34,383 nucleotides of DNA from NCBI GenBank assembly GCA_045591605.1, contig JAZNTC010000182.1, forward strand, positions 1 through 34,383, given 5' to 3'. Position numbers and translations under genes: made by a program. This document shows, one piece after another, positions 14,464-33,476 of the stretch. The stretch is from Acutalibacteraceae bacterium (lineage in GTDB: Bacteria; Bacillota; Clostridia; Oscillospirales; Acutalibacteraceae). Positions within the stretch are counted from its first letter, which is position 1; each line of letters opens with the position of its first letter. The notes beneath the pieces were generated by a model. That model did not search any database. It saw nothing but the letters and a program-made list of their open reading frames with translations, and was not told the DNA's origin.

Positions 14464-15411
14464 TTACTTTTTCAGAGTCAACGCTTCGCGCACTTTTTTA
14501 ACGATCGCGTCTGCCGACAAACCGAACAGCGGCAACAGGTCGAGTGCCGGGCCGGATTTGCCGAAGGTGTCTTGCACACCCACGCGCAACACGGGAACGG
14601 GGCACTTTTCGGCCACGGCTTCCGCCACGGCACTGCCCAAACCGCCAATGATGTTGTGTTCTTCGGCGGTGACGATCGCGCCCGTTTCGGCGGCGGCTTG
14701 CCACACCAATTCGCGGTCGAGCGGCTTGATGGTTGCCATGTTGATCACACGGGCGGCAATCCCTTCGGCGGCAAGGATATCCGCCGCTTTCAGCGCTTCG
14801 CCGAGCAACAGACCGTTTGCAATGATCGCCACGTCGTTGCCTTCACGCAAGGTTACACCCTTGCCGATTTCAAATTTGTAATCCGACGGGGTGACGTTTT
14901 CCACCGCCAAGCGCCCAAAGCGCAGATACACAGGACCTTCCATCGCGGCGGCGGCAAACACCGCCTGTGTGGCTTCGTTGTCGTCGGCAGGGGAAATGAT
15001 GGTCATGCCGGGAATGGTGCGCATCAGTGCAATATCCTCACAGCACTGGTGGGTCGCACCGTCCTCGCCCACCGAAATACCGGCATGGGTCGCACCGATT
15101 TTCACGTTCAGGTGCGGATAGCCGATGGAGTTGCGGATCTGTTCGAACGCACGACCGGCGGCAAACATCGCAAAAGAGGAGGCAAACACCACCTTGCCGG
15201 TGGTGGCGAGACCTGCCGCAATGCTCATCATATTGCCTTCCGCAATGCCGCAATCGAAGAAACGGTCGGGGAATGCTTTTTTGAAACCGCCCGTTTTGGT
15301 GGCGGCGGCGAGGTCGGCATCCAGCACCACCAGGTTGGGCATGCTCTCGCCCAACGCGACCAGTACTGCGCCATAGGAGTCACGGGTTGCTTTTTTCACT
15401 ACGTCTGCCAT
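14464..15411 (-). CDS. tkt: Transketolase, C-terminal (pyrimidine-binding) subunit
   Basis: MADVVKKATRDSYG..., FFDCGIAEGNMMSIAAGLA, EDGATHQ. ATG at 15411 is 5 nt after the upstream stop. Confidence 0.9.
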   Translation of the reverse strand: MADVVKKATRDSYGAVLVALGESMPNLVVLDADLAAATKTGGFKKAFPDRFFDCGIAEGNMMSIAAGLATTGKVVFASSFAMFAAGRAFEQIRNSIGYPHLNVKIGATHAGISVGEDGATHQCCEDIALMRTIPGMTIISPADDNEATQAVFAAAAMEGPVYLRFGRLAVENVTPSDYKFEIGKGVTLREGNDVAIIANGLLLGEALKAADILAAEGIAARVINMATIKPLDRELVWQAAAETGAIVTAEEHNIIGGLGSAVAEAVAEKCPVPVLRVGVQDTFGKSGPALDLLPLFGLSADAIVKKVREALTLKK

Positions 15412-15415
15412 GATC

Positions 15416-16258
15416 TCAACCCTCCAATTCCGCAAGGCGTGCGCTCAGTTCCGCCATCGCCGCATCGTACTGTTCTTTGTTCGGTGCACTGCCGTGCCAA
15501 CCCACCTGGTTTTCCATGAAGGAAACACCCTTGCCTTTGGTGGTGCGCATAATAATGGCGGTGGGCTGACCTTTGGTGGAGCGTGCGCCCGAAAACGCCA
15601 TTTCCAACTGGTCAAAATCGTGGCCATCCACCACGATCACGCGGAACCCGAATGCCGCAAACTTTTCCGGAATGGGATGCGGATTGTTCACTTCGCGCAC
15701 CGTACCGTCGATTTGCAGGTCGTTGTTATCCACAATCACGCACAGGTTGTCCAGCCCTTTGGCCGCCGCAAACATGGCGGCTTCCCACACCTGACCTTCT
15801 TGAATCTCACCGTCGCCCAGAATGGAGTACACGCGATAATCCGCGCCGTCCAGCTTGCCGCCGAGTGCCATGCCGACCGCCGCCGAAACGCCCTGACCGA
15901 GCGAGCCGGAGGACATATCCACACCGGGGGTGCCCTTCATGTCGGGGTGTCCTTGCAACATCGCACCGATGTGGCGGAGGTTTTGAATCTCTGCACGGTC
16001 AAAATAGCCTTTTTCCGCCAGAGCGCCGTATAGCGCCGGTGCGGCGTGACCCTTGGAAAGCACCACACGGTCACGGGAAGGGTCTTTGGGATGTTTGGGA
16101 TCCACCTTCATTTCCTTCCAGTATAAGTACGTCAGCACGTCCGCAATGGAAAGCGAGCCGCCGGGGTGACCGCTTTTTGCATGGAACGTGCCCTCGATAA
16201 TGTCCATGCGGATACGAGTCGCTGTTGCCGCAAGACAAGTCTTTTCACGTGTGTCCAT
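15416..16258 (-). CDS. tkt: Transketolase, N-terminal (ThDP-binding) subunit
   Basis: SGHPGGSLSIADVL, LGDGEIQEGQVWEA. ATG at 16258 (MDTREK) is 9 nt after GGAGG. The track start at 16267 is a TTG abutting the SD. Confidence 0.9.
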   Translation of the reverse strand: MDTREKTCLAATATRIRMDIIEGTFHAKSGHPGGSLSIADVLTYLYWKEMKVDPKHPKDPSRDRVVLSKGHAAPALYGALAEKGYFDRAEIQNLRHIGAMLQGHPDMKGTPGVDMSSGSLGQGVSAAVGMALGGKLDGADYRVYSILGDGEIQEGQVWEAAMFAAAKGLDNLCVIVDNNDLQIDGTVREVNNPHPIPEKFAAFGFRVIVVDGHDFDQLEMAFSGARSTKGQPTAIIMRTTKGKGVSFMENQVGWHGSAPNKEQYDAAMAELSARLAELEG

Positions 16259-16367
16259 TACATACAACCTCCATGTTCGGTGATTACTTGTTCAGTATAC
16301 CATACCTCTTTCAAAAAAGGAAGAGCAAACCCGTAAAAATCGCGCGTTTTTTTACAAAAACCGACTC

Positions 16368-19371: not shown

Positions 19372-20016
19372 ATGAAGATTTCTCCCTCGGTTATGACTTG
19401 TGATTTCTCGCGCTTGGATCGTGCGGTGGCGGCGGCGGATGCGTGGGGCGCGGATCGTCTGCATCTGGACGTGATGGACGGCGTGTTTGTGCCGAACCTC
19501 TCGTTTGGTCCGCCGGTGATCGCCTCGTTGCGTCCGCTCACAACGATGCCGTTTGACGTGCACCTGATGGTGCAAGACCCTGCCGCGTTGCTGGATGCGT
19601 ATGTGAAAGCGGGCGCGGACATGATCACGATTCACGCGGAGTGTTCATCACCGCTGGAAGAAACGCTTCGTCGCATCCGCGAGGCCGGATGCAAGGTGGG
19701 GTTGTCCCTCAACCCCGGCACACCTGTGGAGGTGCTGTGGCCGTATTTGCCGCTGTTGGATCTGGTGTTGGTGATGGCGGTGCAACCCGGTTTCGGCGGT
19801 CAATCCTTCCGCCCCGAGTGCTTGTCCAAAATCACCGCGATCCGCGCACAGTGTGAACGACTTGGGTTGGATATCGACATCGAGGTGGACGGCGGCGTGA
19901 AAGCCGCCAACATCAAAGACGTGGCGGCTGCCGGTGCTTCGTCGGTCGTGATGGGCAGCGCGCTGTATGATGCGGCGGACCCGGCCCCTCTGCTCACCTT
20001 GGCGCGGTCACTGTGA
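19372..20016 (+). CDS. rpe: Ribulose-phosphate 3-epimerase
   Basis: LHLDVMDGVFVPNLSFG, DVHLMV, VQPGFGGQSF, DGGV. Confidence 0.92.
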   Translation: MKISPSVMTCDFSRLDRAVAAADAWGADRLHLDVMDGVFVPNLSFGPPVIASLRPLTTMPFDVHLMVQDPAALLDAYVKAGADMITIHAECSSPLEETLRRIREAGCKVGLSLNPGTPVEVLWPYLPLLDLVLVMAVQPGFGGQSFRPECLSKITAIRAQCERLGLDIDIEVDGGVKAANIKDVAAAGASSVVMGSALYDAADPAPLLTLARSL

Positions 20017-20523
20017 GCGTGTGCGCAAAAACAGTTGCGGCAATGCGTCGCACGTAAGCCACGCATCGCCGTGTTCCGCCACAAAGGCTTCGGTTTCGGT
20101 GGTGGGGCGTGCACATTCCGCCAGTGCCGCAAACGGCGGCACACCGCACAGAATCAGCCGAAACCCGTCGGCGGTGCGGTACAGTGAACTGCTTTCGCCT
20201 TCGGCATGGGTGGGTTGTTGCCACGCAGCGGCAATCTGCAACAGCGCATCTTCGTCGGCAATGTGAAACACGGTGGATGCACACGCTTCTTGCGGTGTGA
20301 CAAGCAGTAAACACCCGTCGGCGGTGGGGAGTGCCTCCACCGAACACGCGCCTTTGGGCGCAAACCCGACACGGCGGCGCGCCACCTGCAACACGGTGCG
20401 CAACATACGCTGTGTTTTGGGGTCGTGTGAATGCAACCTATCAAAACTGAGCCCCATGGCGGTGAGCTCATCGTCCGATAAAAGCAGTGCAAGACATCCG
20501 TTATCGGTCATGTTTACCTGCAA
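20008..20523 (-). CDS. MecA-like adaptor protein (short clostridial form)
   Basis: N-terminal pattern ..LALLLSDDELTAMGLSFDRL.., then VEALPTADGCLLLVT, SSLYRTADGFRLIL and FVAEHGDAWL. These resemble the MecA family layout from memory; no HMM was run. Start is TTG 20523 or ATG 20511. Confidence 0.55.
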   Translation of the reverse strand: MQVNMTDNGCLALLLSDDELTAMGLSFDRLHSHDPKTQRMLRTVLQVARRRVGFAPKGACSVEALPTADGCLLLVTPQEACASTVFHIADEDALLQIAAAWQQPTHAEGESSSLYRTADGFRLILCGVPPFAALAECARPTTETEAFVAEHGDAWLTCDALPQLFLRTRSQ

Positions 20524-20622: not shown

Positions 20623-21870
20623 ATGTCTCTGTTTTCCCCACGTGGGATGCGCCTGCCCTCGCTGAAAGAGCCTGCGGCCGGACGCGCTGTGGAAGAGCCC
20701 CAAACCCTTACACGGGTGTATTTGCCGCTCTCTCACGGGGAAAAGACCCGTGTGAGCCTGCATCGGTACGCTTCGGCGCTGTGCGGACAAACGGTGGCGA
20801 AACCTGTCGGTAAAAAGACCGTGCCGATTCTCTCATCGGTCAGCGGTGTGTATACCGATCAAACAACCTTCTCCCACCCAGTATATGGCGAGACGACTTG
20901 TCTTGTGATGGATTGCATGGATGTGCACCGTCCGCCGGCAGGGGAACGGGCAGACGTGACCGATCTGTCCGCCGAAACGATACTGGAAGCGGCGCGCACC
21001 TGTGCCGTTCGGGACGAGTTGGACGGACGGTATCTCTATGATAAATTGCAAGAATGGGCCGCCGAAGGCTGTGACGTGTTGGTGGGCGATGCGGTGGAAA
21101 ATCAACCGTATGCTTGCGCCGCCTGGGCGGTGTTGAATGAAAGCGCAGAAGCGGTGTACGAAGGGCTTACCCTCGCGGCACGCGTGGTGGGCGCTTCGGA
21201 ATACCATTTGGCGGTGCAACCGTTGCCTGCCGATCATCGCCGTGCGTTGCGCCAACGCCTTGGCGGTGACGAAAAACTGTTTCAGGTGCGCAGTAAATAT
21301 CCGGCGGTGGATTACACCGAAAACCCTAAGGGCAAAACGGTGCGCCGCATCGGCGTGCAGGCATTGCTCGCGCTGTTGCGTGCCGCCGCGTTTGGTGAAG
21401 GACACACCTCCTGCGTGGTGACAGTAGCCGGTGAAGCGGTGGCGACACCGCGCAACCTGCGTGTGCCGTTCGGCACGCCGGCTTCGGCGTTGCTTCACTT
21501 ATGCGGTCTGTCTGCCGACCCGACGGTCATCGTCTTTGGTGATTTGATGACGGGTGTGGCAGTGACCGATGAGGAAATGCCGATTTTGGCAGGGGTGACC
21601 TGTCTGCTTGCGTTGGTCGATTCGCCCCGTCCGCCGGCGGACGTGTGCGTGGGTTGCGGTCGTTGCGTGCAGGTGTGCCACGCCGGCTTGTTGCCGGAGG
21701 CGATCGTGCAACGGTTGGAAAAAGGGCAAAACGAGTACATCAAAGCGCTTCACGCCGAACAATGCGATAATTGCGGTGCGTGTTCCGCCGTGTGTCCTGC
21801 GGGGCGTGACCTCGCGATGTCCATTGCCACGGTGGCAAAGGTGATTGCCGAGGGAGGTGTTGAGCAATGA
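20623..21870 (+). CDS. RnfC-like iron-sulfur subunit lacking the flavin/NADH glycine-rich loop
   Basis: Collinear with RnfC: an N-terminal barrel-sandwich-like segment (VYLPLSHGEKTRV...ILSSVSGVY). VVTVAGEAVATPRNLRVPFGTPASALLHLCG matches the RnfC SLBB region. Two ferredoxin motifs, CVGCGRCVQVCH and CDNCGACSAVCP. No G-x-GGAGFP motif anywhere. Confidence 0.8.
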   Translation: MSLFSPRGMRLPSLKEPAAGRAVEEPQTLTRVYLPLSHGEKTRVSLHRYASALCGQTVAKPVGKKTVPILSSVSGVYTDQTTFSHPVYGETTCLVMDCMDVHRPPAGERADVTDLSAETILEAARTCAVRDELDGRYLYDKLQEWAAEGCDVLVGDAVENQPYACAAWAVLNESAEAVYEGLTLAARVVGASEYHLAVQPLPADHRRALRQRLGGDEKLFQVRSKYPAVDYTENPKGKTVRRIGVQALLALLRAAAFGEGHTSCVVTVAGEAVATPRNLRVPFGTPASALLHLCGLSADPTVIVFGDLMTGVAVTDEEMPILAGVTCLLALVDSPRPPADVCVGCGRCVQVCHAGLLPEAIVQRLEKGQNEYIKALHAEQCDNCGACSAVCPAGRDLAMSIATVAKVIAEGGVEQ

Positions 21871-22859
21871 CGGCTTTTCGCACAACGCCGCACCTGCGGC
21901 AAACCGAATCTGCCGCCTCCCGTTGTTGGGACATGCTCATTCCGCTGGTACCGCTCACGGTGTATTCCTGTGTGTATTACGGACTGCGTCCGCTGATTGT
22001 TATGTTGATCTCGGTCGTGTCCGCGATGGTGTTTGAGCTGCTTGGCTATGCCCTGCAAATGAAACGCGCGCCCCTCACCGACGGCACCGCCGCCGTGACG
22101 GGCGGTGTGATCGGATTGGTGATGTCCCCCATCGTGCCGTACTGGTTGCCTGTGGTGGCATGTGCGGTGGCGATTTTGGCGGCAAAACTGCCGTTTGGCG
22201 GTCGCGGACGCAACCTCTTTAACCCGGCGGCGACGGGCCTTGCCTTTATCACGGTGTGTTTCCCCAATCAGATGTTCGCCTATCCCGATCCCGAGCGTCC
22301 CATCACCGAACTTTCGCAGGTGATCCCTGCGGTGTCGCCTGCCGCGTTGATCCAAACGGGAGCAACGCCGCACATCAGTCCCATGGACATCGTGCTCAGC
22401 AATTTCCCGAGCCCGATCGGCTCGGTGATGATCATTCTGGTCGGTTGTATGTTGTATCTGTTCGTGCGGCGTGCCTCGTCGCCGAGCATTGTGTTGCCGT
22501 TTCTTGCTACCTGTGCGTTGGGTGCGGCACTGTTTCCGCGTGTGAACAGCGGTGTGGGGGCAAGCGTGCTGTTGGAACTGTGTGCCGGCTATTTGATGAT
22601 CACCGCCGTGTTTTTGATCGCGGATCCCACCACCGCACCGCGCCATTGGTTAGCGCGCATCGTGTACGGCGTGGTGGCAGGCGCGCTGGTGATGGCCTTG
22701 CGCCACGTGGGCAAATTCGAAGAAGGCGCGTGCTTTGCCGTGTTGCTTTGCAACCTGTTCTCCAACATCTTGGATCGCAACTGCTGGAAACTGTGTTATC
22801 ATCTGCCGCACTTGTGGCGGCGTGAAAAGGCGACCGAGGGAGGTGACACGGATGAGTGA
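21867..22859 (+). CDS. RnfD/NqrB-family membrane subunit
   Basis: LTDGTAAVTGGVIGL, GGRGRNLFNPAATGLAF, TGATP (flavinylation-type motif), FLIADPTTAP, GKFEEGACFAVLLCNLFSNILD. The ATG overlaps the upstream stop (ATGA). Confidence 0.85.
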   Translation: MTAFRTTPHLRQTESAASRCWDMLIPLVPLTVYSCVYYGLRPLIVMLISVVSAMVFELLGYALQMKRAPLTDGTAAVTGGVIGLVMSPIVPYWLPVVACAVAILAAKLPFGGRGRNLFNPAATGLAFITVCFPNQMFAYPDPERPITELSQVIPAVSPAALIQTGATPHISPMDIVLSNFPSPIGSVMIILVGCMLYLFVRRASSPSIVLPFLATCALGAALFPRVNSGVGASVLLELCAGYLMITAVFLIADPTTAPRHWLARIVYGVVAGALVMALRHVGKFEEGACFAVLLCNLFSNILDRNCWKLCYHLPHLWRREKATEGGDTDE

Positions 22860-23508
22860 ACCGCGTGAACAAGGGCGTTTTTCCCGTTTGGCGAAGATCT
22901 TCTTTGACACCTTTCTTGTGCGTAACATCGTGCTGGTGAAACTGCTCGGTCTGTGCCCCATCGTGGTGGCGGCGGTGGATTTGAAAGCCGGTGTCACCCT
23001 TACCGCGTGTGTGGCACTCGCCTTGCTTCCCACCGCGCTGTTGATGTCCTTCGTGGGCGAAAAACTGAAACCCGTCATCCGTGTACCGCTCTATACCGTG
23101 ATCGCGTTGGTGATCCTGCTCGGTGCCGGATTTGTGCTCAACACCTACATTGAGCCGGAACTTTATGCCTCGCTGTATCTGTTTTTGCCCCTGCTCGCGG
23201 TGAATTCGCTGATGACCTATCGCGTGGGCGGTTTCGCTGTGGTGAGCCGTCCGCCCGAAGCCGTGGCGGATGCACTCGGTTCGGTGTGCGGGTTCGGGGT
23301 GGTCATCTGTGTGGTGGCGGCGGTGCGTGAACTGTTGGCCAACGGCTCGATGTGGGACGTGCGGTTGCTGTCCACGCCGCCGCTCACGGCGGCATCCTCG
23401 CCGTTCTTTGCCTTTTTGATGCTCGGTATGTTGGCGGCGTTGATGCAGTTTGTGCGCGAAATGCTTCGCCGTTTTGTAGAAGGGGAGGTGTCGGTGCCGT
23501 ATGAATGA
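22852..23508 (+). CDS. RnfE/NqrD-like membrane subunit (divergent)
   Basis: NIVLVKLLGLCPIVV (first half-motif kept), LPLLAVNSLM (Cys position is Ser). Start overlaps the rnfD-like stop by 8 nt. Confidence 0.75.
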   Translation: MSEPREQGRFSRLAKIFFDTFLVRNIVLVKLLGLCPIVVAAVDLKAGVTLTACVALALLPTALLMSFVGEKLKPVIRVPLYTVIALVILLGAGFVLNTYIEPELYASLYLFLPLLAVNSLMTYRVGGFAVVSRPPEAVADALGSVCGFGVVICVVAAVRELLANGSMWDVRLLSTPPLTAASSPFFAFLMLGMLAALMQFVREMLRRFVEGEVSVPYE

Positions 23509-24085
23509 GTTGTTGACTATGCTGTTCGCCACCGCGCTGTTCCAAAACGTGGTGCTCACCACCGGCTTCGGCAGTTCGCTGGCGTTGCGTGTGATCCACC
23601 GTAAAAGCGACATCTGGAAATTTGGGGGTATATTATCGTTCTTCCTCATCACCACCATGGCGATTGATTATCCGCTGGATCATTTGCTCGGATTCGGTGT
23701 GTGGGCGAAACTGTTGCGCCCCTTGGTGATGGTGGGGGTTGCCATGGCACTTTACTGCGCCGTTACCCTCATCACGGCACGCATTTCGGTGCCGTTTTAT
23801 CACAAGTTGAAACCCTATCTGATCCCGGCCGTGTTCAACGATCTGACCCTCGGTCTGGCAATGGTTGCCAACCACAAGGTCACCCTCACCTTCTGGGGGA
23901 CGATGGGTCTGGCGGTGGGCAGTTGCCTCGGTTTTATGCTGATGGGGTGGATCATTTTGGAAGGGCGTTTTCGCATCAATGCCCATGCCGTGCCGCGCGC
24001 CTTTCGCGGTGCGCCGGTGATCCTCATCTATCTCGGCATCGCGGCACTCGCCATGCTTGGCTTCGGCAGCAGCATTTTGCTGTGA
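23501..24085 (+). CDS. RnfA/NqrE-like membrane subunit (divergent, both conserved Cys positions substituted)
   Basis: C-terminal VPRAFRGAPVILIYLGIAALAMLGFG matches the RnfA VP.PFRG......GLMSLAFMGF region. N-terminal QNVVLTTGFGSS and central IPAVFNDLTLG replace the LGLCP and TTNC motifs. Start overlaps the upstream stop by 8 nt. Confidence 0.75.
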   Translation: MNELLTMLFATALFQNVVLTTGFGSSLALRVIHRKSDIWKFGGILSFFLITTMAIDYPLDHLLGFGVWAKLLRPLVMVGVAMALYCAVTLITARISVPFYHKLKPYLIPAVFNDLTLGLAMVANHKVTLTFWGTMGLAVGSCLGFMLMGWIILEGRFRINAHAVPRAFRGAPVILIYLGIAALAMLGFGSSILL

Positions 24086-24117
24086 GGGGCAGGTTTTCGG
24101 AAACGCTTCATAAAAAG

Positions 24118-24153
24118 AAAGTTCCCACAAGCGGCTGCTTGCGGGAACTTTTT
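24118..24153. terminator. Bidirectional terminator between rnfA-like and the convergent degV
   Basis: AAAGTTCCC-a-CAAGC (24118-24132), loop GGCT, GCTTG-c-GGGAACTTT (24137-24151), with T-runs on both strands. Confidence 0.8.
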
Positions 24154-24170
24154 GCGTTTGTATTCGGTTT

Positions 24171-25201: not shown

Positions 25202-28200
25202 ATGGAACGAAACAAGATCTCTTTGAAACTCTCGTTGTGGGAGATCCTGCGCATCGTCGCGATGGTGCTGTTCTTTGTGGGCATCACGGTGCTGGGGTAT
25301 TGGTATTTCACCCACGACAACGCGCAGTTGGAAGTGCGTAACGAAGCGCAAAAACTGCTGTATCCGTTGGGGCTGGGTATGTTGCTCGGCGGTCTGCTCA
25401 CCGCCACCTTGGCGGCGCTGGCATGGAACCACAGCGAGGAACGTCCCGTGTGGTACTATCCCGTGGTGTCGGCATTTCTCACCTTCTGCGGTCTCGGTCT
25501 GGCATACGTTCTGCTGGGCATTTGGCCGATCGCGGAAGAAACCTGTATGATCGTGGATATGCACCACCAATACGGTCCACTGCTTGCCAAACTGCGCGCC
25601 ATGCTGCTTCAGGGGAACGGATTTTTCTATTCGTTTGATCTCGGTATGGGTGCGAACTTCTTACCTGCATTTGCCTATTACCTTGCCAGTCCGCTCAATG
25701 CCTTGCTTGTGTTGTTCCCCGAATCGCTGTTGCCCGAAGGCATCTTCCTCATCACCATTGTGAAGAATATGCTGATTGCGGCAAGTTTTGCGCTGTGCGT
25801 GCAATACGTTTACGGCAAACGCTCGCCCGTGGTGGTGGCGGTGTCGCTGATGTATTCCATGATGATGTACGTGTTGGCATACTCTTGGAACATCATGTGG
25901 CTGGACGGTGTGATCGCTCTGCCGCTGGTGGTGATGGGTTTTGAGCACATGATGCGTCGCGGCAAATATTTGCCCTACGTGCTGTCGCTGGCATACGCCT
26001 TGTTTGCGAACTACTACATCGGCTTTATGCTGTGTGTATTTTTAGTGCTGTATTTCTTCGCCTATCTGTTTCGCCAAAAGCGCGAAACCAAAAACAACCG
26101 CTTGGCGCTGTGGCGTTTCACGCTGGGCTCGTTGCTCGGCGGCGGTCTCGCTATGTTCTTGGTGTTGCCCACCTTCCTCGCATTGGGGCAGACCTCGGCG
26201 GCAGGCGCCCAAATGCCCGATTGGGACGTGTATTTTGAACTGTTTGACATGCTGGGTCGTCACCTCTATCGCGTGTCTCCCACCATTCGTTCCCGTTTCT
26301 TGCCCAACGTGTATTGCGGCATTGCCGCGGTGGTGTTGGTGCCGCTGTTTGCGATGAACGAGGGGATTCCCCGTCGCCGCCGCATGGTGTATATGGCGTT
26401 GCTCGCGGTGTTGGCATTCAGCCTGCCGCTCAACCAGGCAAACCTGTTGTGGCACGGCTTGCACGCCCCCAACGACCTGCCCTACCGTTTCTCCTTCCTC
26501 TATTGCTTCGTTCTCATTTTGCTCAGCTACGAAACGCTGTTGCACATTCGCACGGTGCAGCCGCGCCAAATCGTGGCCACCTTTCTCGGTGTCCTCACTT
26601 TCATTGTGTTGCAAGAGCGGTTTGGTAACAGCGAAACCTACGGGTTTCAGTCGCTGTATATCAGCTTGTTGCTCGCGGCGATTTATGCGGTGTTGTGCTT
26701 CTTGCTGTCGCAGGAAAAGGTGCGCCGCCGTGTGGGCGCGATGATGGTGCTAACCGTGGTGGCGATGGAAATGACCTTGAATGCCACCAACGTGATGAAT
26801 CAGTTGGACAGCCAGGAATATTACACCAACCACGAACACTACGTGGATAACATCACCACCGCCGGCGTGCGCGAAGCGGTGGACACGATGGAACGCAAAC
26901 TGGCGCAAAGCGGCGATTTGTTCTCCCGTATGGAGTTCATCCCTCGCCGCACCTGCATGGATACCGCCCTGTTCCAGTATAGCGGCATTACCTCGTTTGC
27001 ATCCAGCAACTCCTATCGCACCACGCGGTTTATGGGCGCGATGGGCTATGCGGTCAACGGCGTGAACAGTTATCTCTATAAGAGTTTCGTTCCCGTGACC
27101 GACTCGTTGCTCGGCATTCGCTACGTCGCGTTGGAAGGCAACCTGTCCTCCCACACCCAGTTGAAGCAGGTGGATTATGCCTACGTGTCGAACAACAAGG
27201 GCGAAGAAAAAGCGTTTTATATTTATGAAAATACGACGGCGTTGCCGATTGCGTGGCGTGCCAATGACACGGTGAAAACCTGGGCATCGTCCTATTACAA
27301 CCCCGTGGAAAGCATCAACGGGCTGTATGCCGCCATGACGGGCGACCCGTCCCCGGTGCTGGTGCCGATGCAAATTGAACCGTATAACGATATGCGCGGT
27401 GCGGTCACCGTCAACGGGACGTACGGCTTTCAGTTAAAGTCGTCCTCCTCCAAAACGGCGGAGTTCCGCGCCTACGCGGATGAAGACGGGCAGTATTTCA
27501 TTTACGTGGATTGCCGCGGTGCGGATTCCATTCAGGTGACGCAGGGCGATAACAGTTGGAGTGTCACCACCTACGAACCGTATTTCATTGATGCAGGCAC
27601 CCTTTCGGCAGGCGCCCCCGTTGCCGTGACGATCACGTCGGACACCTCTTGCGCCGGCAACGTGTACGTGGTGCGCATGGATGCCGCGGTGTTCAACCGC
27701 GCGATCGAGACCCTGCGCGCCGACGGGTTGCAGGTCACCGAGTACACCGATAACCGCATGGTGGGCAACGTGACAGCATCGGCTGTCGGTGCGATGGTCA
27801 CCTCCATCCCCTATGATGCCGGCTGGCGCGTGAAGGTGGACGGCAAGGAAGTAGCGACCTATCCGCTGGATCAAGCGGTGCCCGATGGGGTGAAACCCGA
27901 AGACAACAAGGGCGGTGCTCTGCTCGGCTTTGACATCCCGGCAGGCGCACACGAGGTGGAACTCGTCTTTGTGCCGCACGGCTTTGTGCCGGGGGTGTTG
28001 CTCAGCCTGATTAGTCTGCTGTTGATTGTGGCGGTGGCGTTGCTCACCGGCCGCAAGGCGCATTGGGCAAAGGCGACACCCGTGGCGTGGATGGTGGATA
28101 CCACCGATCTGGATGCCCTGCCGACCGCCGATGAAACGGAATCGGTACGGCTCGATGAGGAGTCGCCCCTTGCGAAAGAACCGTTGCCGGACGAAGAATC

Positions 28201-28282
28201 GCCCGTTGAGACAGAGCGGTTGACCGACGAGAGCGAGGAACAAAAACCTGCCCCCCAAGAAAGTGAGGAGACCGCCGAATGA
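25202..28282 (+). CDS. YfhO-family GT-C membrane glycosyltransferase (1026 aa) with C-terminal TM helix and acidic tail
   Basis: FFYSFDLGMGANFLPAFAYYLASPLNALLVLFPE and many TM helices, then a large extracytoplasmic domain, a terminal TM helix and a D/E-rich tail. Confidence 0.8.
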   Translation: MERNKISLKLSLWEILRIVAMVLFFVGITVLGYWYFTHDNAQLEVRNEAQKLLYPLGLGMLLGGLLTATLAALAWNHSEERPVWYYPVVSAFLTFCGLGLAYVLLGIWPIAEETCMIVDMHHQYGPLLAKLRAMLLQGNGFFYSFDLGMGANFLPAFAYYLASPLNALLVLFPESLLPEGIFLITIVKNMLIAASFALCVQYVYGKRSPVVVAVSLMYSMMMYVLAYSWNIMWLDGVIALPLVVMGFEHMMRRGKYLPYVLSLAYALFANYYIGFMLCVFLVLYFFAYLFRQKRETKNNRLALWRFTLGSLLGGGLAMFLVLPTFLALGQTSAAGAQMPDWDVYFELFDMLGRHLYRVSPTIRSRFLPNVYCGIAAVVLVPLFAMNEGIPRRRRMVYMALLAVLAFSLPLNQANLLWHGLHAPNDLPYRFSFLYCFVLILLSYETLLHIRTVQPRQIVATFLGVLTFIVLQERFGNSETYGFQSLYISLLLAAIYAVLCFLLSQEKVRRRVGAMMVLTVVAMEMTLNATNVMNQLDSQEYYTNHEHYVDNITTAGVREAVDTMERKLAQSGDLFSRMEFIPRRTCMDTALFQYSGITSFASSNSYRTTRFMGAMGYAVNGVNSYLYKSFVPVTDSLLGIRYVALEGNLSSHTQLKQVDYAYVSNNKGEEKAFYIYENTTALPIAWRANDTVKTWASSYYNPVESINGLYAAMTGDPSPVLVPMQIEPYNDMRGAVTVNGTYGFQLKSSSSKTAEFRAYADEDGQYFIYVDCRGADSIQVTQGDNSWSVTTYEPYFIDAGTLSAGAPVAVTITSDTSCAGNVYVVRMDAAVFNRAIETLRADGLQVTEYTDNRMVGNVTASAVGAMVTSIPYDAGWRVKVDGKEVATYPLDQAVPDGVKPEDNKGGALLGFDIPAGAHEVELVFVPHGFVPGVLLSLISLLLIVAVALLTGRKAHWAKATPVAWMVDTTDLDALPTADETESVRLDEESPLAKEPLPDEESPVETERLTDESEEQKPAPQESEETAE

Positions 28283-29223
28283 TTACGGTAATTATGCCGG
28301 TATATAATGAAGGCGAATTTATCTATCAAAACGTCTGCCGCGTGCGAGAGATACTCTCCGCCGCCGCGGTGGAACACCAGTTTTTGCTGGTAGACGACGG
28401 GTCAAAGGACAATTCCTTTGCCGAAATGTCCCGTCTGGCCGACGATTTCGAGGACGTATCCATCATCGGCCTGTCTCGCAACTTCGGTAAGGAGGCGGCG
28501 CTTTGTGCGGCGCTGGAAAATGCCGACGGCGATGCGGTGGTGGTGATGGATTCCGACCTGCAGCATCCGCCGAAATACATCCCCGAGATGGTGCGTTTAT
28601 GGAAAGAGGAAGGCTACGACGTGGTGGAAGGGGTCAAGGAAGACCGCGGCAAGGAATCGCTCGGCAGTAAGATTGCCGCCTTACTGTTTTATCGCACCTT
28701 TGCCAAATCCACCGGCATCGACATCGGCATCGCTTCGGATTTCAAACTGCTGGATCGCTCGGTGGTGGAAGCGTGGCGCAAACTGCCCGAACGTAATACC
28801 TTCTTCCGCGGTTTGTCCGCATGGGTGGGCTTCAAACGGTATGCCCTCCCCTTCAAAGTGGCGCCCCGTGCCGGCGGCGAAACCAAATGGACGTTCAAAG
28901 GTCTGGCGCGGTTAGCGCTCAATTCCCTCACCGCTTATTCCTCTGCGCCGCTGTTTTTGGTATTCTGGCTCGGTGTGTTGATGCTGCTCGCCGCCGTGGT
29001 GCTGACGGTGGAAACCTTGGTGATGTATTTTGCACGCCACGCCGCCCCCGGCTTTTCCACCGTTATTCTGTTGCAGTTGTTCATCGGCAGTGCCACCATG
29101 ATGAGCCTCAGCATAATCGGCATGTACATTGCGAAGATTTACGAGGAAGTCAAGGGACGTCCGCGCTACCTCATTCGTGCGGCGCGCGGTCGTGCGCTGA
29201 CCGCCTACAATAAGGAAAAATAA
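28279..29223 (+). CDS. GT2 polyprenyl-phosphate glycosyltransferase (GtrB/CsbB-like)
   Basis: VIMPVYNE, LLVDDGSKD, VMDSDLQHPP, two C-terminal TM helices. The ATG overlaps the yfhO-like stop (ATGA). Confidence 0.85.
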   Translation: MITVIMPVYNEGEFIYQNVCRVREILSAAAVEHQFLLVDDGSKDNSFAEMSRLADDFEDVSIIGLSRNFGKEAALCAALENADGDAVVVMDSDLQHPPKYIPEMVRLWKEEGYDVVEGVKEDRGKESLGSKIAALLFYRTFAKSTGIDIGIASDFKLLDRSVVEAWRKLPERNTFFRGLSAWVGFKRYALPFKVAPRAGGETKWTFKGLARLALNSLTAYSSAPLFLVFWLGVLMLLAAVVLTVETLVMYFARHAAPGFSTVILLQLFIGSATMMSLSIIGMYIAKIYEEVKGRPRYLIRAARGRALTAYNKEK

Positions 29224-30492: not shown

Positions 30493-31410
30493 TTATTTCC
30501 TGCCCAACTTTGCGAAGAACCGGAAGGTCAGCGGCCACACACAACCGGCAAAGGCGGCAACGAGAAAATAGCGGATGCCGTCGGCCACGGGCGTGCCGCC
30601 GCACAGGGCAGTAAGCGGCACTTTCAGCCCCGATTTGATGGCGAGAAGCGGCAAAAGTCCCAACACCATCTTCAAAATTTGCGCCCACCACACGGCGGCG
30701 GTGTCAAAATGCAAGGCACGCTCATCCACTTCGAATGCCAGCCACAACCCAAGAAAACACCCCATCATTTTATGCGCCGTTTTCACACCGCTTTCGTAGT
30801 TGTGGGGGTCGATATCGGCAGGGAACGGAAACCACGTGACAAACGCCAAAAAGGCGACGGCAAGGAAGGCGCATGCCGCAAACAGTATGCGCATGCGGCG
30901 AGGACTTTGCAACGCGTTATTCACCAGCGGATACATCACCAGCACCAACGCGGTGCCCACCGCGAGGGATACGCCCACATCGAGCGGTGTGTGCACGCCG
31001 AGATACATCCGCGAAAGAGCGACCAGCGCACACAAAAGCAACAGCGCACCGCGCACCCACCACCGCGCGGCAAACCGCGCAATGCCGCCAAACAATCCCA
31101 CTGCGGTTTGGGTGTGTCCGCTGGGGAAGGAATAGCCGGTGGCGGCTTCCTTGGCATTGCCCACCACCGTAAGTGAAGGGTCTTGCACCCACGGACGCGG
31201 AATACGAACCAGCAGCTTCAAGAATTGATTCATCACCGTGCCCAAGAACCCGACAAACAGCAAATAGTAACCTTGTCGCTTGTTGATGCACCAGAAAAAC
31301 AGCAATCCTGCCACGATAAACAGCGTTTCTTCTCCGCATTGCGTCACAAGCGAAAAGAACGCATCCAAAAGCGGAGTACGCAACCCCGAAAGCCAATGCA
31401 AAAACGCCAT
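30493..31410 (-). CDS. PAP2-family lipid phosphatase (possible undecaprenyl-diphosphate or phosphatidate phosphatase) with extra C-terminal TM region
   Basis: KLLVRIPRP, PSGH and SRMYLGVHTPLD motifs. ATG at 31410 (MAFLHWL) is 7 nt after AAAGGAGG. The upstream part of ORF 30493..31650 is a non-coding extension. Confidence 0.85.
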   Translation of the reverse strand: MAFLHWLSGLRTPLLDAFFSLVTQCGEETLFIVAGLLFFWCINKRQGYYLLFVGFLGTVMNQFLKLLVRIPRPWVQDPSLTVVGNAKEAATGYSFPSGHTQTAVGLFGGIARFAARWWVRGALLLLCALVALSRMYLGVHTPLDVGVSLAVGTALVLVMYPLVNNALQSPRRMRILFAACAFLAVAFLAFVTWFPFPADIDPHNYESGVKTAHKMMGCFLGLWLAFEVDERALHFDTAAVWWAQILKMVLGLLPLLAIKSGLKVPLTALCGGTPVADGIRYFLVAAFAGCVWPLTFRFFAKLGRK

Positions 31411-31444
31411 GCGCCGGCCTCCTTTAACCCACAGTATACACCAG

Positions 31445-31473
31445 TATATACCACAAAGTTCCGCCGATGTCAA
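31445..31473 (-). promoter_or_regulatory. PAP2 gene promoter: TTGACA-17-TATATA with TGg extension
   Basis: Minus strand -35 at 31468-31473, -10 at 31445-31450. Confidence 0.6.
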
Positions 31474-31497
31474 ATGCGCGGCGTGTCGAATTTCTAC

Positions 31498-31526
31498 TTG
31501 ATATATTGGGTAGAATATGTTATAAT
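31498..31526 (+). promoter_or_regulatory. Promoter of the capD-like/degT-like operon: TTGATA-17-TATAAT
   Basis: -35 at 31498-31503, -10 at 31521-31526. Confidence 0.65.
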
Positions 31527-31601
31527 ACAGTAAATTATACTGTGTGAGTGTGCTCTTTTCGCGAAAGGCGGCGAAATGGAGCCCAAAAGGATGTGACAGG
31601 A

Positions 31602-33476
31602 ATGGCAAAAACGAGTGCGTTGCATCGTGGCGGCGCGGTGCAAAGGACAATTCATATTGCGGTTTTGGACATTCTTTCGGTCGTGGCCTGCTGGTTTGCC
31701 GCCTTGTGGTTGCGATTTGATTTTCAGTTCAGCAACATTCCTTCGGAATACATCCACGCCTATGCCGTGGGCGTTCTTCCGTGGTGTGCGGTGGTGGTGG
31801 CGGTGTTTGCGGTCTGCCGTATGTACAGTGGTTTGCTCAGCTATGCCGGCGCAGACGATCTGTTGCGTGTGCTGGGTGCCTATGCCATCTTGACGGTCGT
31901 GGGGTATTTTTTTGTTCGCGTGACGGACGTTGTGTTGCCCTACGCGTGTTACATAATCGGGTTGATGCTCAACTTCCTCCTGACCCTCGCCATTCGCTTT
32001 GCCTACCGTTTGGTGCGCAGTATGCGCATGTGGGTGCAGAATTGGAATGTGGATAAAAACTGTGAAAACGTGATGCTGATCGGCGCAGGTGAGGCAGGAC
32101 GTATGCTTGCCGCCGAATTTTTGAACAGCCGCCATTTGCACGATACGGTGGTGTGTGCCATCGACGATAACCTTGCCAAACGCGGCAAACGACTGTGCGG
32201 TGTTCCGATCGTGGGCGACCGTCATTGCATTCCCGAAGCGGTGAAGGAATATAATGTGGATAAGATCGTGTTTGCCATCCCCACCGCCCCCCCGCAAGAG
32301 CGCAAAGAGATCTTGGATATTTGCGCCACCACGGGTTGTCCCGTGCAAACCGTGCCCGGCATTTATCAACTGGCAGGCGGCGATGTCAGCGTCAGCCAAC
32401 TGCGTGACGTGGATATGGTGGAATTGTTGGGGCGCGATCCGATCCGCGGCAACGAGGAAGAAATACGGGGGTACATTAGGGGAAAGGTCGTTATGGTCAC
32501 GGGCGGCGGCGGATCCATCGGCAGCGAACTGTGCCGACAGATCGCGGCGGCGGACCCGAAGCAACTGATTGTTTTCGATATTTACGAAAACAGCGCCTAT
32601 GAACTCCAATTGGAATTGCAACGGAACTATCCCACATTGGATCTGGTGGCGCTGATCGGTTCGGTGCGCAACACGGCGCGTGTTAACGCGGTGATGGACA
32701 CATACAGGCCCGACATCGTGTTTCACGCGGCAGCGCACAAGCACGTGCCGTTGATGGAGCAAAGCCCGAACGAAGCCATTAAAAACAACGTGTTCGGAAC
32801 GTATAAACTGGCGAAGGCGGCGGACGCACACGGGGTGAAACGCTTTGTGCTCATCTCCACCGATAAAGCGGTGAACCCCACCAACATTATGGGCGCATCC
32901 AAACGGCTGTGCGAAATGGTGGTGCAGATGATGAACCGCGAAAGCGCCACAGAGTTTGCCGCCGTGCGGTTCGGCAACGTGCTGGGCAGTAACGGCAGTG
33001 TGATTCCGCTGTTCAAAAAGCAAATTACGGCAGGCGGCCCCGTCACCGTTACCCACCCCGACATCGTGCGGTATTTTATGACCATCCCTGAAGCGGTATC
33101 GTTGGTGTTGCAAGCGGGACATTATGCGCGCGGCGGCGAGATCTTTGTGCTGGATATGGGCGAACCCGTGAAGATTGATACAATGGCGCGTAACTTGATC
33201 CGCTTGTCGGGATATGAACCGGATGTGGATATTCGCGTGGAATACACGGGTCTGCGCCCCGGAGAAAAGTTATATGAAGAGATATTGATGACGGAAGAGG
33301 GGCTGAAAAGCACCGCCAACCGCCTCATACACATTGGACACCCCATTGAGATGGATGACGAACAATTCAAAGCGCAGTTGGACGAGTTGGAACAAGCGTG
33401 TTTGCAAGAAAGCAGCGATGTGAAACGGTTGGTGGCACAGATGGTGCCCACCTACACACCCGACACCACCGATTGA
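31602..33476 (+). CDS. Membrane-anchored CapD/PglF/WbpM-type nucleotide-sugar 4,6-dehydratase
   Basis: Four N-terminal TM helices, VMVTGGGGSIGSEL Rossmann motif, STDKAVNPTNIMGASKR catalytic region. The ATG at 31602 (MAKTSAL) is preferred over the GTG at 31548. Confidence 0.85.
   Translation: MAKTSALHRGGAVQRTIHIAVLDILSVVACWFAALWLRFDFQFSNIPSEYIHAYAVGVLPWCAVVVAVFAVCRMYSGLLSYAGADDLLRVLGAYAILTVVGYFFVRVTDVVLPYACYIIGLMLNFLLTLAIRFAYRLVRSMRMWVQNWNVDKNCENVMLIGAGEAGRMLAAEFLNSRHLHDTVVCAIDDNLAKRGKRLCGVPIVGDRHCIPEAVKEYNVDKIVFAIPTAPPQERKEILDICATTGCPVQTVPGIYQLAGGDVSVSQLRDVDMVELLGRDPIRGNEEEIRGYIRGKVVMVTGGGGSIGSELCRQIAAADPKQLIVFDIYENSAYELQLELQRNYPTLDLVALIGSVRNTARVNAVMDTYRPDIVFHAAAHKHVPLMEQSPNEAIKNNVFGTYKLAKAADAHGVKRFVLISTDKAVNPTNIMGASKRLCEMVVQMMNRESATEFAAVRFGNVLGSNGSVIPLFKKQITAGGPVTVTHPDIVRYFMTIPEAVSLVLQAGHYARGGEIFVLDMGEPVKIDTMARNLIRLSGYEPDVDIRVEYTGLRPGEKLYEEILMTEEGLKSTANRLIHIGHPIEMDDEQFKAQLDELEQACLQESSDVKRLVAQMVPTYTPDTTD

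Follow-up and report, generated by a model that had tools for sequence, protein, structure and literature searches.

A four-gene Rnf-like operon of gut Clostridia and the cysteine ligand columns of its membrane subunits

What becomes of an Rnf-type membrane scaffold when most of the cysteines that hold its intramembrane cluster are gone? This question is raised by a four-gene operon on contig JAZNTC010000182.1 of an Acutalibacteraceae bacterium (assembly GCA_045591605.1). We analysed a stretch of 34,383 nucleotides of this contig, which is referred to as the window in the following. The operon encodes, in this order, an RnfC-like subunit (C'), an RnfD-like subunit (D') and two membrane subunits of the RnfE type (E') and the RnfA type (A'). 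The intramembrane [2Fe-2S] cluster of RnfA/RnfE and NqrD/NqrE is considered central to redox-driven Na+ pumping by enzymes of this ancient family. In A. woodii this cluster, named AE1, is held by C25 and C113 of RnfA and by C25 and C108 of RnfE (PMC11889175; review PMC12174285), and mutation of the AE1 cysteines left neither activity nor autotrophic growth (PMC11889175). An earlier reading made from the letters of the window alone (the sequence-only reading) had started from a four-cysteine picture that agrees with both of these sources, and had noticed that three of the four ligands appear to be lost. The span it pointed to, 22852-24085, comprises precisely the open reading frames (ORFs) of E' and A', the last two genes of the operon. 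Our answer is that the four genes very probably belong to a conserved family without the canonical four-cysteine [2Fe-2S] site, distinct from a canonical Rnf.

Ligand columns of E' and A'

The register of the ligand columns was determined with phmmer against the chains of A. woodii (9eri), C. tetanomorphum (7zc6), A. vinelandii (8ahx) and the V. cholerae Nqr complex (7xk3) and, independently, with MAFFT. Both alignments gave one identical register for all four columns. The flanking motifs are in register as well (NxxVL, the position of G-x-C-P and the Asn preceding the second cysteine), and NqrD and NqrE carry Cys at the same columns (phmmer against 7xk3). In E' the motif LGLC35P stands opposite LGMCP, and Cys35 is the sole canonical ligand retained. 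The second cysteine of E' is replaced by Ser119, with VNS119 opposite VNC. For A' we found GSS26L opposite GICP and FND114 opposite TNC, with Ser26 in place of the first and Asp114 in place of the second cysteine. The sequence-only reading had therefore placed the motifs correctly: in the E-like protein LLGLCPIVV keeps its Cys and LPLLAVNSLM has Ser at the Cys site, as confirmed by the alignments to the PDB chains and by MAFFT, and in the A-like protein TTGFGSSLAL and IPAVFNDLTLG have no Cys at either site. The loss of three of the four ligands holds in the alignment to RnfA, RnfE, NqrD and NqrE, which rules out that the motifs were mis-registered.

We then compared these columns with homologues inside and outside the family. 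Both E columns are Cys in 57 of 58 other RnfE-type homologues outside the C'D'E'A' family, and thus the three substitutions are not ordinary variation. Within the orthologue family (MAFFT) the first cysteine column of E' is Cys in 43 of 45 sequences. The second column of E' contains Ser (11), Thr (13), Leu (8) or Met (13) and Cys in none. The first column of A' is Ser in all 46 sequences, and the second column is Asn in 31, Asp in 8, Ser in 6 and Thr in 1 of them, again without a single Cys. The substitutions are consequently family-wide, as the sequence-only reading had proposed to check among orthologues, with the second E column and both A columns never Cys. Elsewhere in E' the equivalent of RnfE R67 is present and the position of its ion-pair partner E115 is Gly. 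The AlphaFold2 (AF2) model of E' has a predicted local distance difference test score (pLDDT) of 77.9, and its best fold matches are RnfE (9eri_E, with template modelling scores of 0.78/0.86) and NqrD.

Spread and conservation of the operon

A profile scan of species-representative genomes yielded 45 related loci in metagenome-assembled genomes of Acutalibacteraceae, Oscillospiraceae or related Clostridia from gut and rumen. The order C-D-E-A was observed in all 42 of these 45 loci that reach far enough upstream, and there is no space for a G or B gene between the genes. The ORFs are intact in the 45 loci, and the ratio of nonsynonymous to synonymous substitution rates (dN/dS) lies between 0.07 and 0.2 for each of the four genes when compared with close orthologues. 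Because the operon order is kept, the substitutions are fixed across orthologues and the genes are under purifying selection, the loss of the cysteines is not a sign of decay.

This bears on a more trivial account of the locus, according to which it is a canonical Rnf that is either decaying or wrongly aligned, so that the missing cysteines would reflect an alignment error or a degenerating paralogue. The low scores of the proteins against the Rnf models made an alignment error possible a priori. However, phmmer and MAFFT agree with the flanking motifs in register, the substitutions are fixed throughout 45-48 clusters of orthologues with intact reading frames and the dN/dS values given above, and the predicted fold of E' matches that of RnfE. 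We regard this account as extremely improbable. Pseudogenisation and mis-registration are both refuted by the selection on the genes, the intact ORFs and the concordant alignments, which include NqrD and NqrE.

In the window the four genes overlap by 4, 8 and 8 nt at their junctions and a Shine-Dalgarno site precedes every start. A terminator-like hairpin follows A' and marks the 3' end of the operon in the window lineage. The overlaps, the Shine-Dalgarno sites and the hairpin uphold the view that these genes form a four-gene operon. D', E' and A' pass the Pfam gathering score (PF03116 for D', PF02508 for E' and A'). All four subunits are far under the trusted cutoffs of the NCBIfam models rnfC, rnfD, rnfE and rnfA, and the homologues of Zongyangia hominis are likewise below. 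Table 1 lists the features of the operon together with the residues discussed in the text.

Table 1. Positions of the operon genes, of selected residues and motifs and of adjacent features in the window
Feature	Position	Strand	Remarks
MecA-like adaptor gene	20008..20523	-	divergent from operon; Pfam PF05389 36 bits
C', RnfC-like subunit, 415 amino acids	20623..21870	+	NCBIfam rnfC 149 bits (cutoff 246); aligned to 9eri_C, 7zc6_C
C' residues 131-142, DELDG motif	21013-21048		in place of FMN/NADH loop
C' first [4Fe-4S] motif	21646-21681		CVGCGRCVQVCH
C' second [4Fe-4S] motif	21763-21798		CDNCGACSAVCP
D', RnfD-like subunit, 330 amino acids	21867..22859	+	Pfam PF03116 223 bits; NCBIfam rnfD 160 bits (cutoff 207)
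D' Asn119	22221-22223		riboflavin-ligand equivalent
D' Ser157	22335-22337		column of flavinylated Thr in RnfD
D' residues 164-168, TGATP	22356-22370		
D' Asp253	22623-22625		riboflavin-ligand equivalent
E', RnfE-type membrane subunit, 218 amino acids	22852..23508	+	Pfam PF02508 101 bits; NCBIfam rnfE 74 bits (cutoff 213)
E' Cys35	22954-22956		first ligand column
E' Cys53	23008-23010		gained cysteine
E' Ser119	23206-23208		second ligand column
E' Cys153	23308-23310		gained cysteine
A', RnfA-type membrane subunit, 194 amino acids	23501..24085	+	Pfam PF02508 43 bits; NCBIfam rnfA 46 bits (cutoff 229)
A' Ser26	23576-23578		first ligand column
A' Asp114	23840-23842		second ligand column
A' Cys142	23924-23926		
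Bidirectional terminator-like hairpin, 15-bp stem	24118..24151	no strand	between A' stop and convergent DegV gene

To see how far the family extends we built a hidden Markov model (HMM) from A' sequences and used it to search 1.84 billion cluster representatives with a threshold of E <= 1e-10. There were 602 matches, and the best 150 of the 602 (clusters at 50% identity) scored at least 92 bits each. Canonical RnfA chains reached 59-74 bits against the same profile. Across 295 A'-type representatives the first ligand column is Cys in 9 and Ser in 208, the second holds Cys in 133, and just 5 have Cys at both. Two cultured isolates, Anaerotruncus rubiinfantis and Z. hominis, keep none of the four canonical cysteines and a further locus, L047, keeps one. 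Both isolates show the arrangement rpe, divergent MecA-like gene, C'-D'-E'-A' and a gene for a DUF4015 protein; in L047 the same series from rpe to DUF4015 occurs without the MecA-like gene. The proteins of the family are labelled by NCBI only as 'Rnf-Nqr domain containing protein' or 'hypothetical', and searches of the literature on rnfCDEA, 'Rnf-like' complexes and DUF4015 yielded no account of a C'D'E'A' system. We conclude that C'-D'-E'-A' is a widespread variant within the Rnf/Nqr kind, whose carriers are Acutalibacteraceae and Oscillospiraceae (NCBI order Eubacteriales).

Cofactor sites and the proposed working mode

The two remaining subunits differ in what they have kept. C' contains two [4Fe-4S] motifs whose eight cysteines are invariant in 39 of 39 orthologues and in those distant members that have a C'. 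The glycine-rich loop GxGGATFPT, which forms the flavin mononucleotide (FMN)/NADH site of RnfC, is replaced by DELDG. Furthermore, the AECEPY motif is degenerate and YPQGAEKQL is deleted. The replacement motif D-E-L-D-G-x-x-L-x-x-K-L is conserved family-wide, which suggests a new function at the position of the old FMN/NADH loop and not a mere loss. The C' of A. rubiinfantis (L051:5428-7344) carries a low-complexity C-terminal extension of ~240 amino acids.

In D' the equivalents of the riboflavin ligands are present, Asn119 being Asn in 42 of 44 and Asp253 being Asp in 44 of 44 orthologues. The corresponding ligands of A. woodii RnfD are N123 and D249 (PMC11889175). Ser157 occupies the column of the flavinylated RnfD Thr, and Ser was observed here in all 44 orthologues. 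It is preceded by two variable positions and not by the usual G/A-A context. The sequence-only reading had stated that the RnfD-like subunit, in contrast to E' and A', keeps a flavinylation-type motif TGATP. This string is present and resembles an ApbE target, but it lies 7 residues downstream of the FMN-Thr column and its Thr is exchanged for A, K, D, N, Y, Q or S in orthologues. We therefore rejected it as the flavinylation site of D', since it varies and lies off the column of the RnfD Thr, and with it falls the contrast to the A/E pair.

These observations permit a judgement on the canonical reaction path, which runs from ferredoxin (Fd) over RnfB, the [2Fe-2S] cluster, FMN of RnfG, FMN/riboflavin of RnfD and the FeS/FMN groups of RnfC to NAD+. 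In the system that the operon encodes, this loop is inoperable because RnfB, the [2Fe-2S] ligands, RnfG and the NADH site are missing. A Pfam scan of parts of the window brought up neither ApbE, RnfB, RnfG nor canonical Rnf genes, the genome beyond the window being outside this search. Going by the encoded sequences, a canonical Fd:NAD+ loop with cluster-gated Na+ pumping is thus a mode in which the complex cannot operate. The argument of the sequence-only reading against canonical transmembrane electron transfer is in line with this: it is supported by the fixed loss of the cysteines, the operon without RnfB and RnfG and the lost FMN/NADH loop of RnfC. Its further suggestion, that an ion-conducting or structural core was repurposed, is a possible reading. 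The complex is probably still redox-active, as C' keeps two [4Fe-4S] motifs and D' keeps the riboflavin ligands.

We propose that C', with its two [4Fe-4S] clusters, and D', with riboflavin and possibly FMN on Ser157, would form a redox arm. This C'-D' arm may join a cytoplasmic partner to an acceptor in the membrane or on its extracytoplasmic side. A' and E' would form an antiparallel heterodimer without a cluster, which could scaffold D', conduct ions or do both. The linkage to DUF4015 and to the MecA-like gene hints at a role in the cell envelope over a bioenergetic one. The whole explanation, an Rnf-derived C'-D'-E'-A' system with the mode proposed here, we judge to be evenly poised between right and wrong. 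The mode itself, consisting of a short redox arm and a cluster-free A'/E' pair, is put forward tentatively and with distinctly less confidence.

Several observations weigh against this explanation. The low-GC relative L050 has no C' gene at all. In A. rubiinfantis the FMN-Thr column of D' is occupied by Asn. The proposed C'-D' redox arm and the covalent FMN are for these two reasons not universal in the superfamily. Ser and Asp occasionally serve as ligands of Fe-S clusters. The conservation of three E' cysteines at similar predicted depth, together with Cys142 of A', leaves room for a relocated metal site, which is treated in the next paragraph. A search for RNA runs found none. As a side observation, the D' of L050 is fused to a low-complexity Lys/Glu-rich tail of ~540 amino acids (L050:1411-4026).

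Besides Cys35, E' has two cysteines that canonical RnfE does not have. Cys53 is Cys in 47 of 48 clusters, at a column that is Ala in 56 of 58 canonical RnfE sequences, and Cys153 is Cys in 48 of 48 clusters, at a column filled by V, T or I in canonical RnfE. The canonical ligand that survives, Cys35, is less conserved than either (43 of 48 clusters). A' has no invariant compensating cysteine; its Cys142 is Cys in 39 of 46 sequences. On the secondary-structure map of the AF2 model, Cys35 is found at the start of transmembrane helix (TM) 1b, Cys53 is the 10th residue of TM2 (44-71) and Cys153 the 20th residue of TM5 (134-164), and the three are predicted to lie about equally deep, close to the centre of the membrane. 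In the Acutalibacteraceae subfamily Cys35, Cys53 and Cys153, perhaps with Cys142 or Asp/Asn114 of A', might accordingly hold an Fe-S cluster or another metal, such that electron transfer through A'/E' would persist in altered form. The conservation of these residues and their modelled common depth favour such a site. On the other hand, relatives with the same operon do without them: the two columns read V and G in A. rubiinfantis and A and I in L047, and hence Cys53 and Cys153 are not required for the core function of the family. The canonical site is also built from the 'inner helices', to which TM2 and TM5 do not belong (PMC12174285), and the operon encodes neither the donor (RnfB) nor the acceptor (RnfG) for such a centre. 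We consider a relocated site improbable.

The neighbouring genes give rise to another alternative. In 36 related loci (L003-L042) a DUF4015 gene starts ~20 nt after A', and the same was observed for A. rubiinfantis and Z. hominis. The gene was lost in the window and in its two closest relatives, L001 and L008; in these three a bidirectional terminator and a convergent DegV gene stand in its stead (window 24086-24170). DUF4015 is a putative glycosyl-hydrolase domain with a TIM barrel. The one DUF4015 protein that we examined has, as read from its sequence, an N-terminal hydrophobic segment resembling a membrane anchor, and comparison with the PDB returned a single weak match to an uncharacterised protein. 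The MecA-like gene was encountered upstream and in opposite orientation in 26 related loci as well as in L050, L051 and L052. No FMN_bind or RnfB gene was found in the Pfam-annotated flanks of L047, A. rubiinfantis and Z. hominis.

According to this alternative the complex was exapted for a task without redox chemistry. D'E'A' would then be a transporter, an ion channel or a scaffold for the DUF4015 protein, the MecA-like protein or both, and the clusters of C' would serve structure or regulation, as in a redox sensor, and would not conduct electrons. The close spacing of DUF4015 behind A' in the 36 loci and in the cultured isolates agrees with this idea, as do the conserved divergent MecA-like neighbour, the D'E'A' set without C' in L050, the Asn in A. 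rubiinfantis D' and the four A/E ligand columns, which vary freely in the superfamily. However, every C' has all eight Fe-S cysteines and D' conserves its riboflavin ligands, for which retained electron transfer is the simplest account. Moreover, the window lineage has lost DUF4015 and still holds the four genes under purifying selection. A purely non-redox function therefore appears rather unlikely to us. A more far-reaching idea is that an order-wide descendant of Rnf in gut Clostridia, having shed its Fd input, NADH site, FMN shuttle and intramembrane [2Fe-2S] cluster, may have been exapted, together with the DUF4015 enzyme and the MecA-like adaptor, for a non-bioenergetic task such as redox-linked envelope remodelling or transport, with E' of the Acutalibacteraceae adding an intramembrane site of three cysteines. 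This idea is doubtful, and we mention it as a speculation.

The wider surroundings of the operon in the window consist of housekeeping genes and genes for cell-envelope glycosylation (GT4, YfhO, GT2, PAP2 and CapD-like). At 14464-16267 (minus strand), 25202-29223 (plus strand) and 30493-33476 we noted a split transketolase whose N and C halves are separate; a YfhO protein of 1026 amino acids followed by GT2; a PAP2 phosphatase; and a CapD-like gene.

The family can be seen as a natural deletion experiment, as the scaffold was kept while the cluster, RnfB, RnfG and the NADH site were dispensed with. As such it shows what the scaffold is capable of without the cluster. The question is directly testable because homologues exist in the cultured A. 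rubiinfantis and Z. hominis.

Relation to known systems

The closest point of comparison is Rnf itself (RnfCDGEAB; structures 7zc6, 8ahx and 9eri), together with RsxABCDGE of E. coli. Its subunits C, D, E and A have homologues in C'D'E'A', encoded in the same order. As in Rnf, the fold of E' matches RnfE, the two [4Fe-4S] motifs are found in C' and the riboflavin ligands in D', and the distribution of positive charges in E' and A', as read from the sequence, is consistent with an antiparallel pair. Unlike in Rnf, the operon does not contain RnfB and RnfG, one of the four [2Fe-2S] cysteines remains (none or one in distant members) and the FMN/NADH loop has given way to DELDG. The [ST]GA[ST] context in D' is not conserved, the Glu115 position of RnfE is Gly in E', the family is linked to DUF4015 and a MecA-like gene, and all subunits score under the NCBIfam cutoffs. 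Taking the hallmarks of an Rnf together, we found the eight cysteines of RnfC and the riboflavin ligands of RnfD, whereas the six-subunit set, the four-cysteine site, the FMN/NADH loop of RnfC and scores above the curated cutoffs are all absent. The system would work in part like Rnf and Nqr.

This has a practical side. One isolate, BL-6, was reported to have 'only four Rnf subunit genes' along with Ech, and was grouped in the same paper with C. jeddahense and C. merdae (PMC7764203). These four genes are possibly a system of the C'D'E'A' type that was read as an incomplete Rnf. The related C. lactatifermentans has a canonical rnfCDGEAB (PMC9600882). Its locus with spoVT, rpe and a hypothetical gene does not contain C'D'E'A'. 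Caution is called for when 'Rnf present' is scored from partial matches in genomes of gut Oscillospiraceae.

In Na+-NQR (NqrABCDEF) the homologues of D', E' and A' are NqrB, NqrD and NqrE, respectively. NqrA, which has no cofactors, is a precedent for the loss of cofactors in a homologue of RnfC, whereas C' retains its Fe-S clusters. Na+-NQR keeps the four-cysteine [2Fe-2S] cluster in NqrD/E, the FMN of NqrC and the input module NqrF, and the C'D'E'A' operon has none of these.

Finally, the two-subunit 'Nqr/Rnf-like complex' (Meheust et al. 2021; Huang et al. 2024, PMC11334425) is also a reduced derivative of Rnf/Nqr, and its RnfD-like subunit likewise has no conserved flavinylation Thr. This complex was proposed to carry electrons one way and not in the manner of the Rnf loop (PMC11334425). 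Its RnfD-like subunit is fused to an NAD-binding PF00175 domain and is accompanied by a flavinylated RnfG-like subunit, without A, E and C. D' in contrast is a stand-alone protein of 330 amino acids that matches PF03116 only, and there is no G-like gene in its operon. The subset found in C'D'E'A' is the opposite one, namely C, D, E and A without G.

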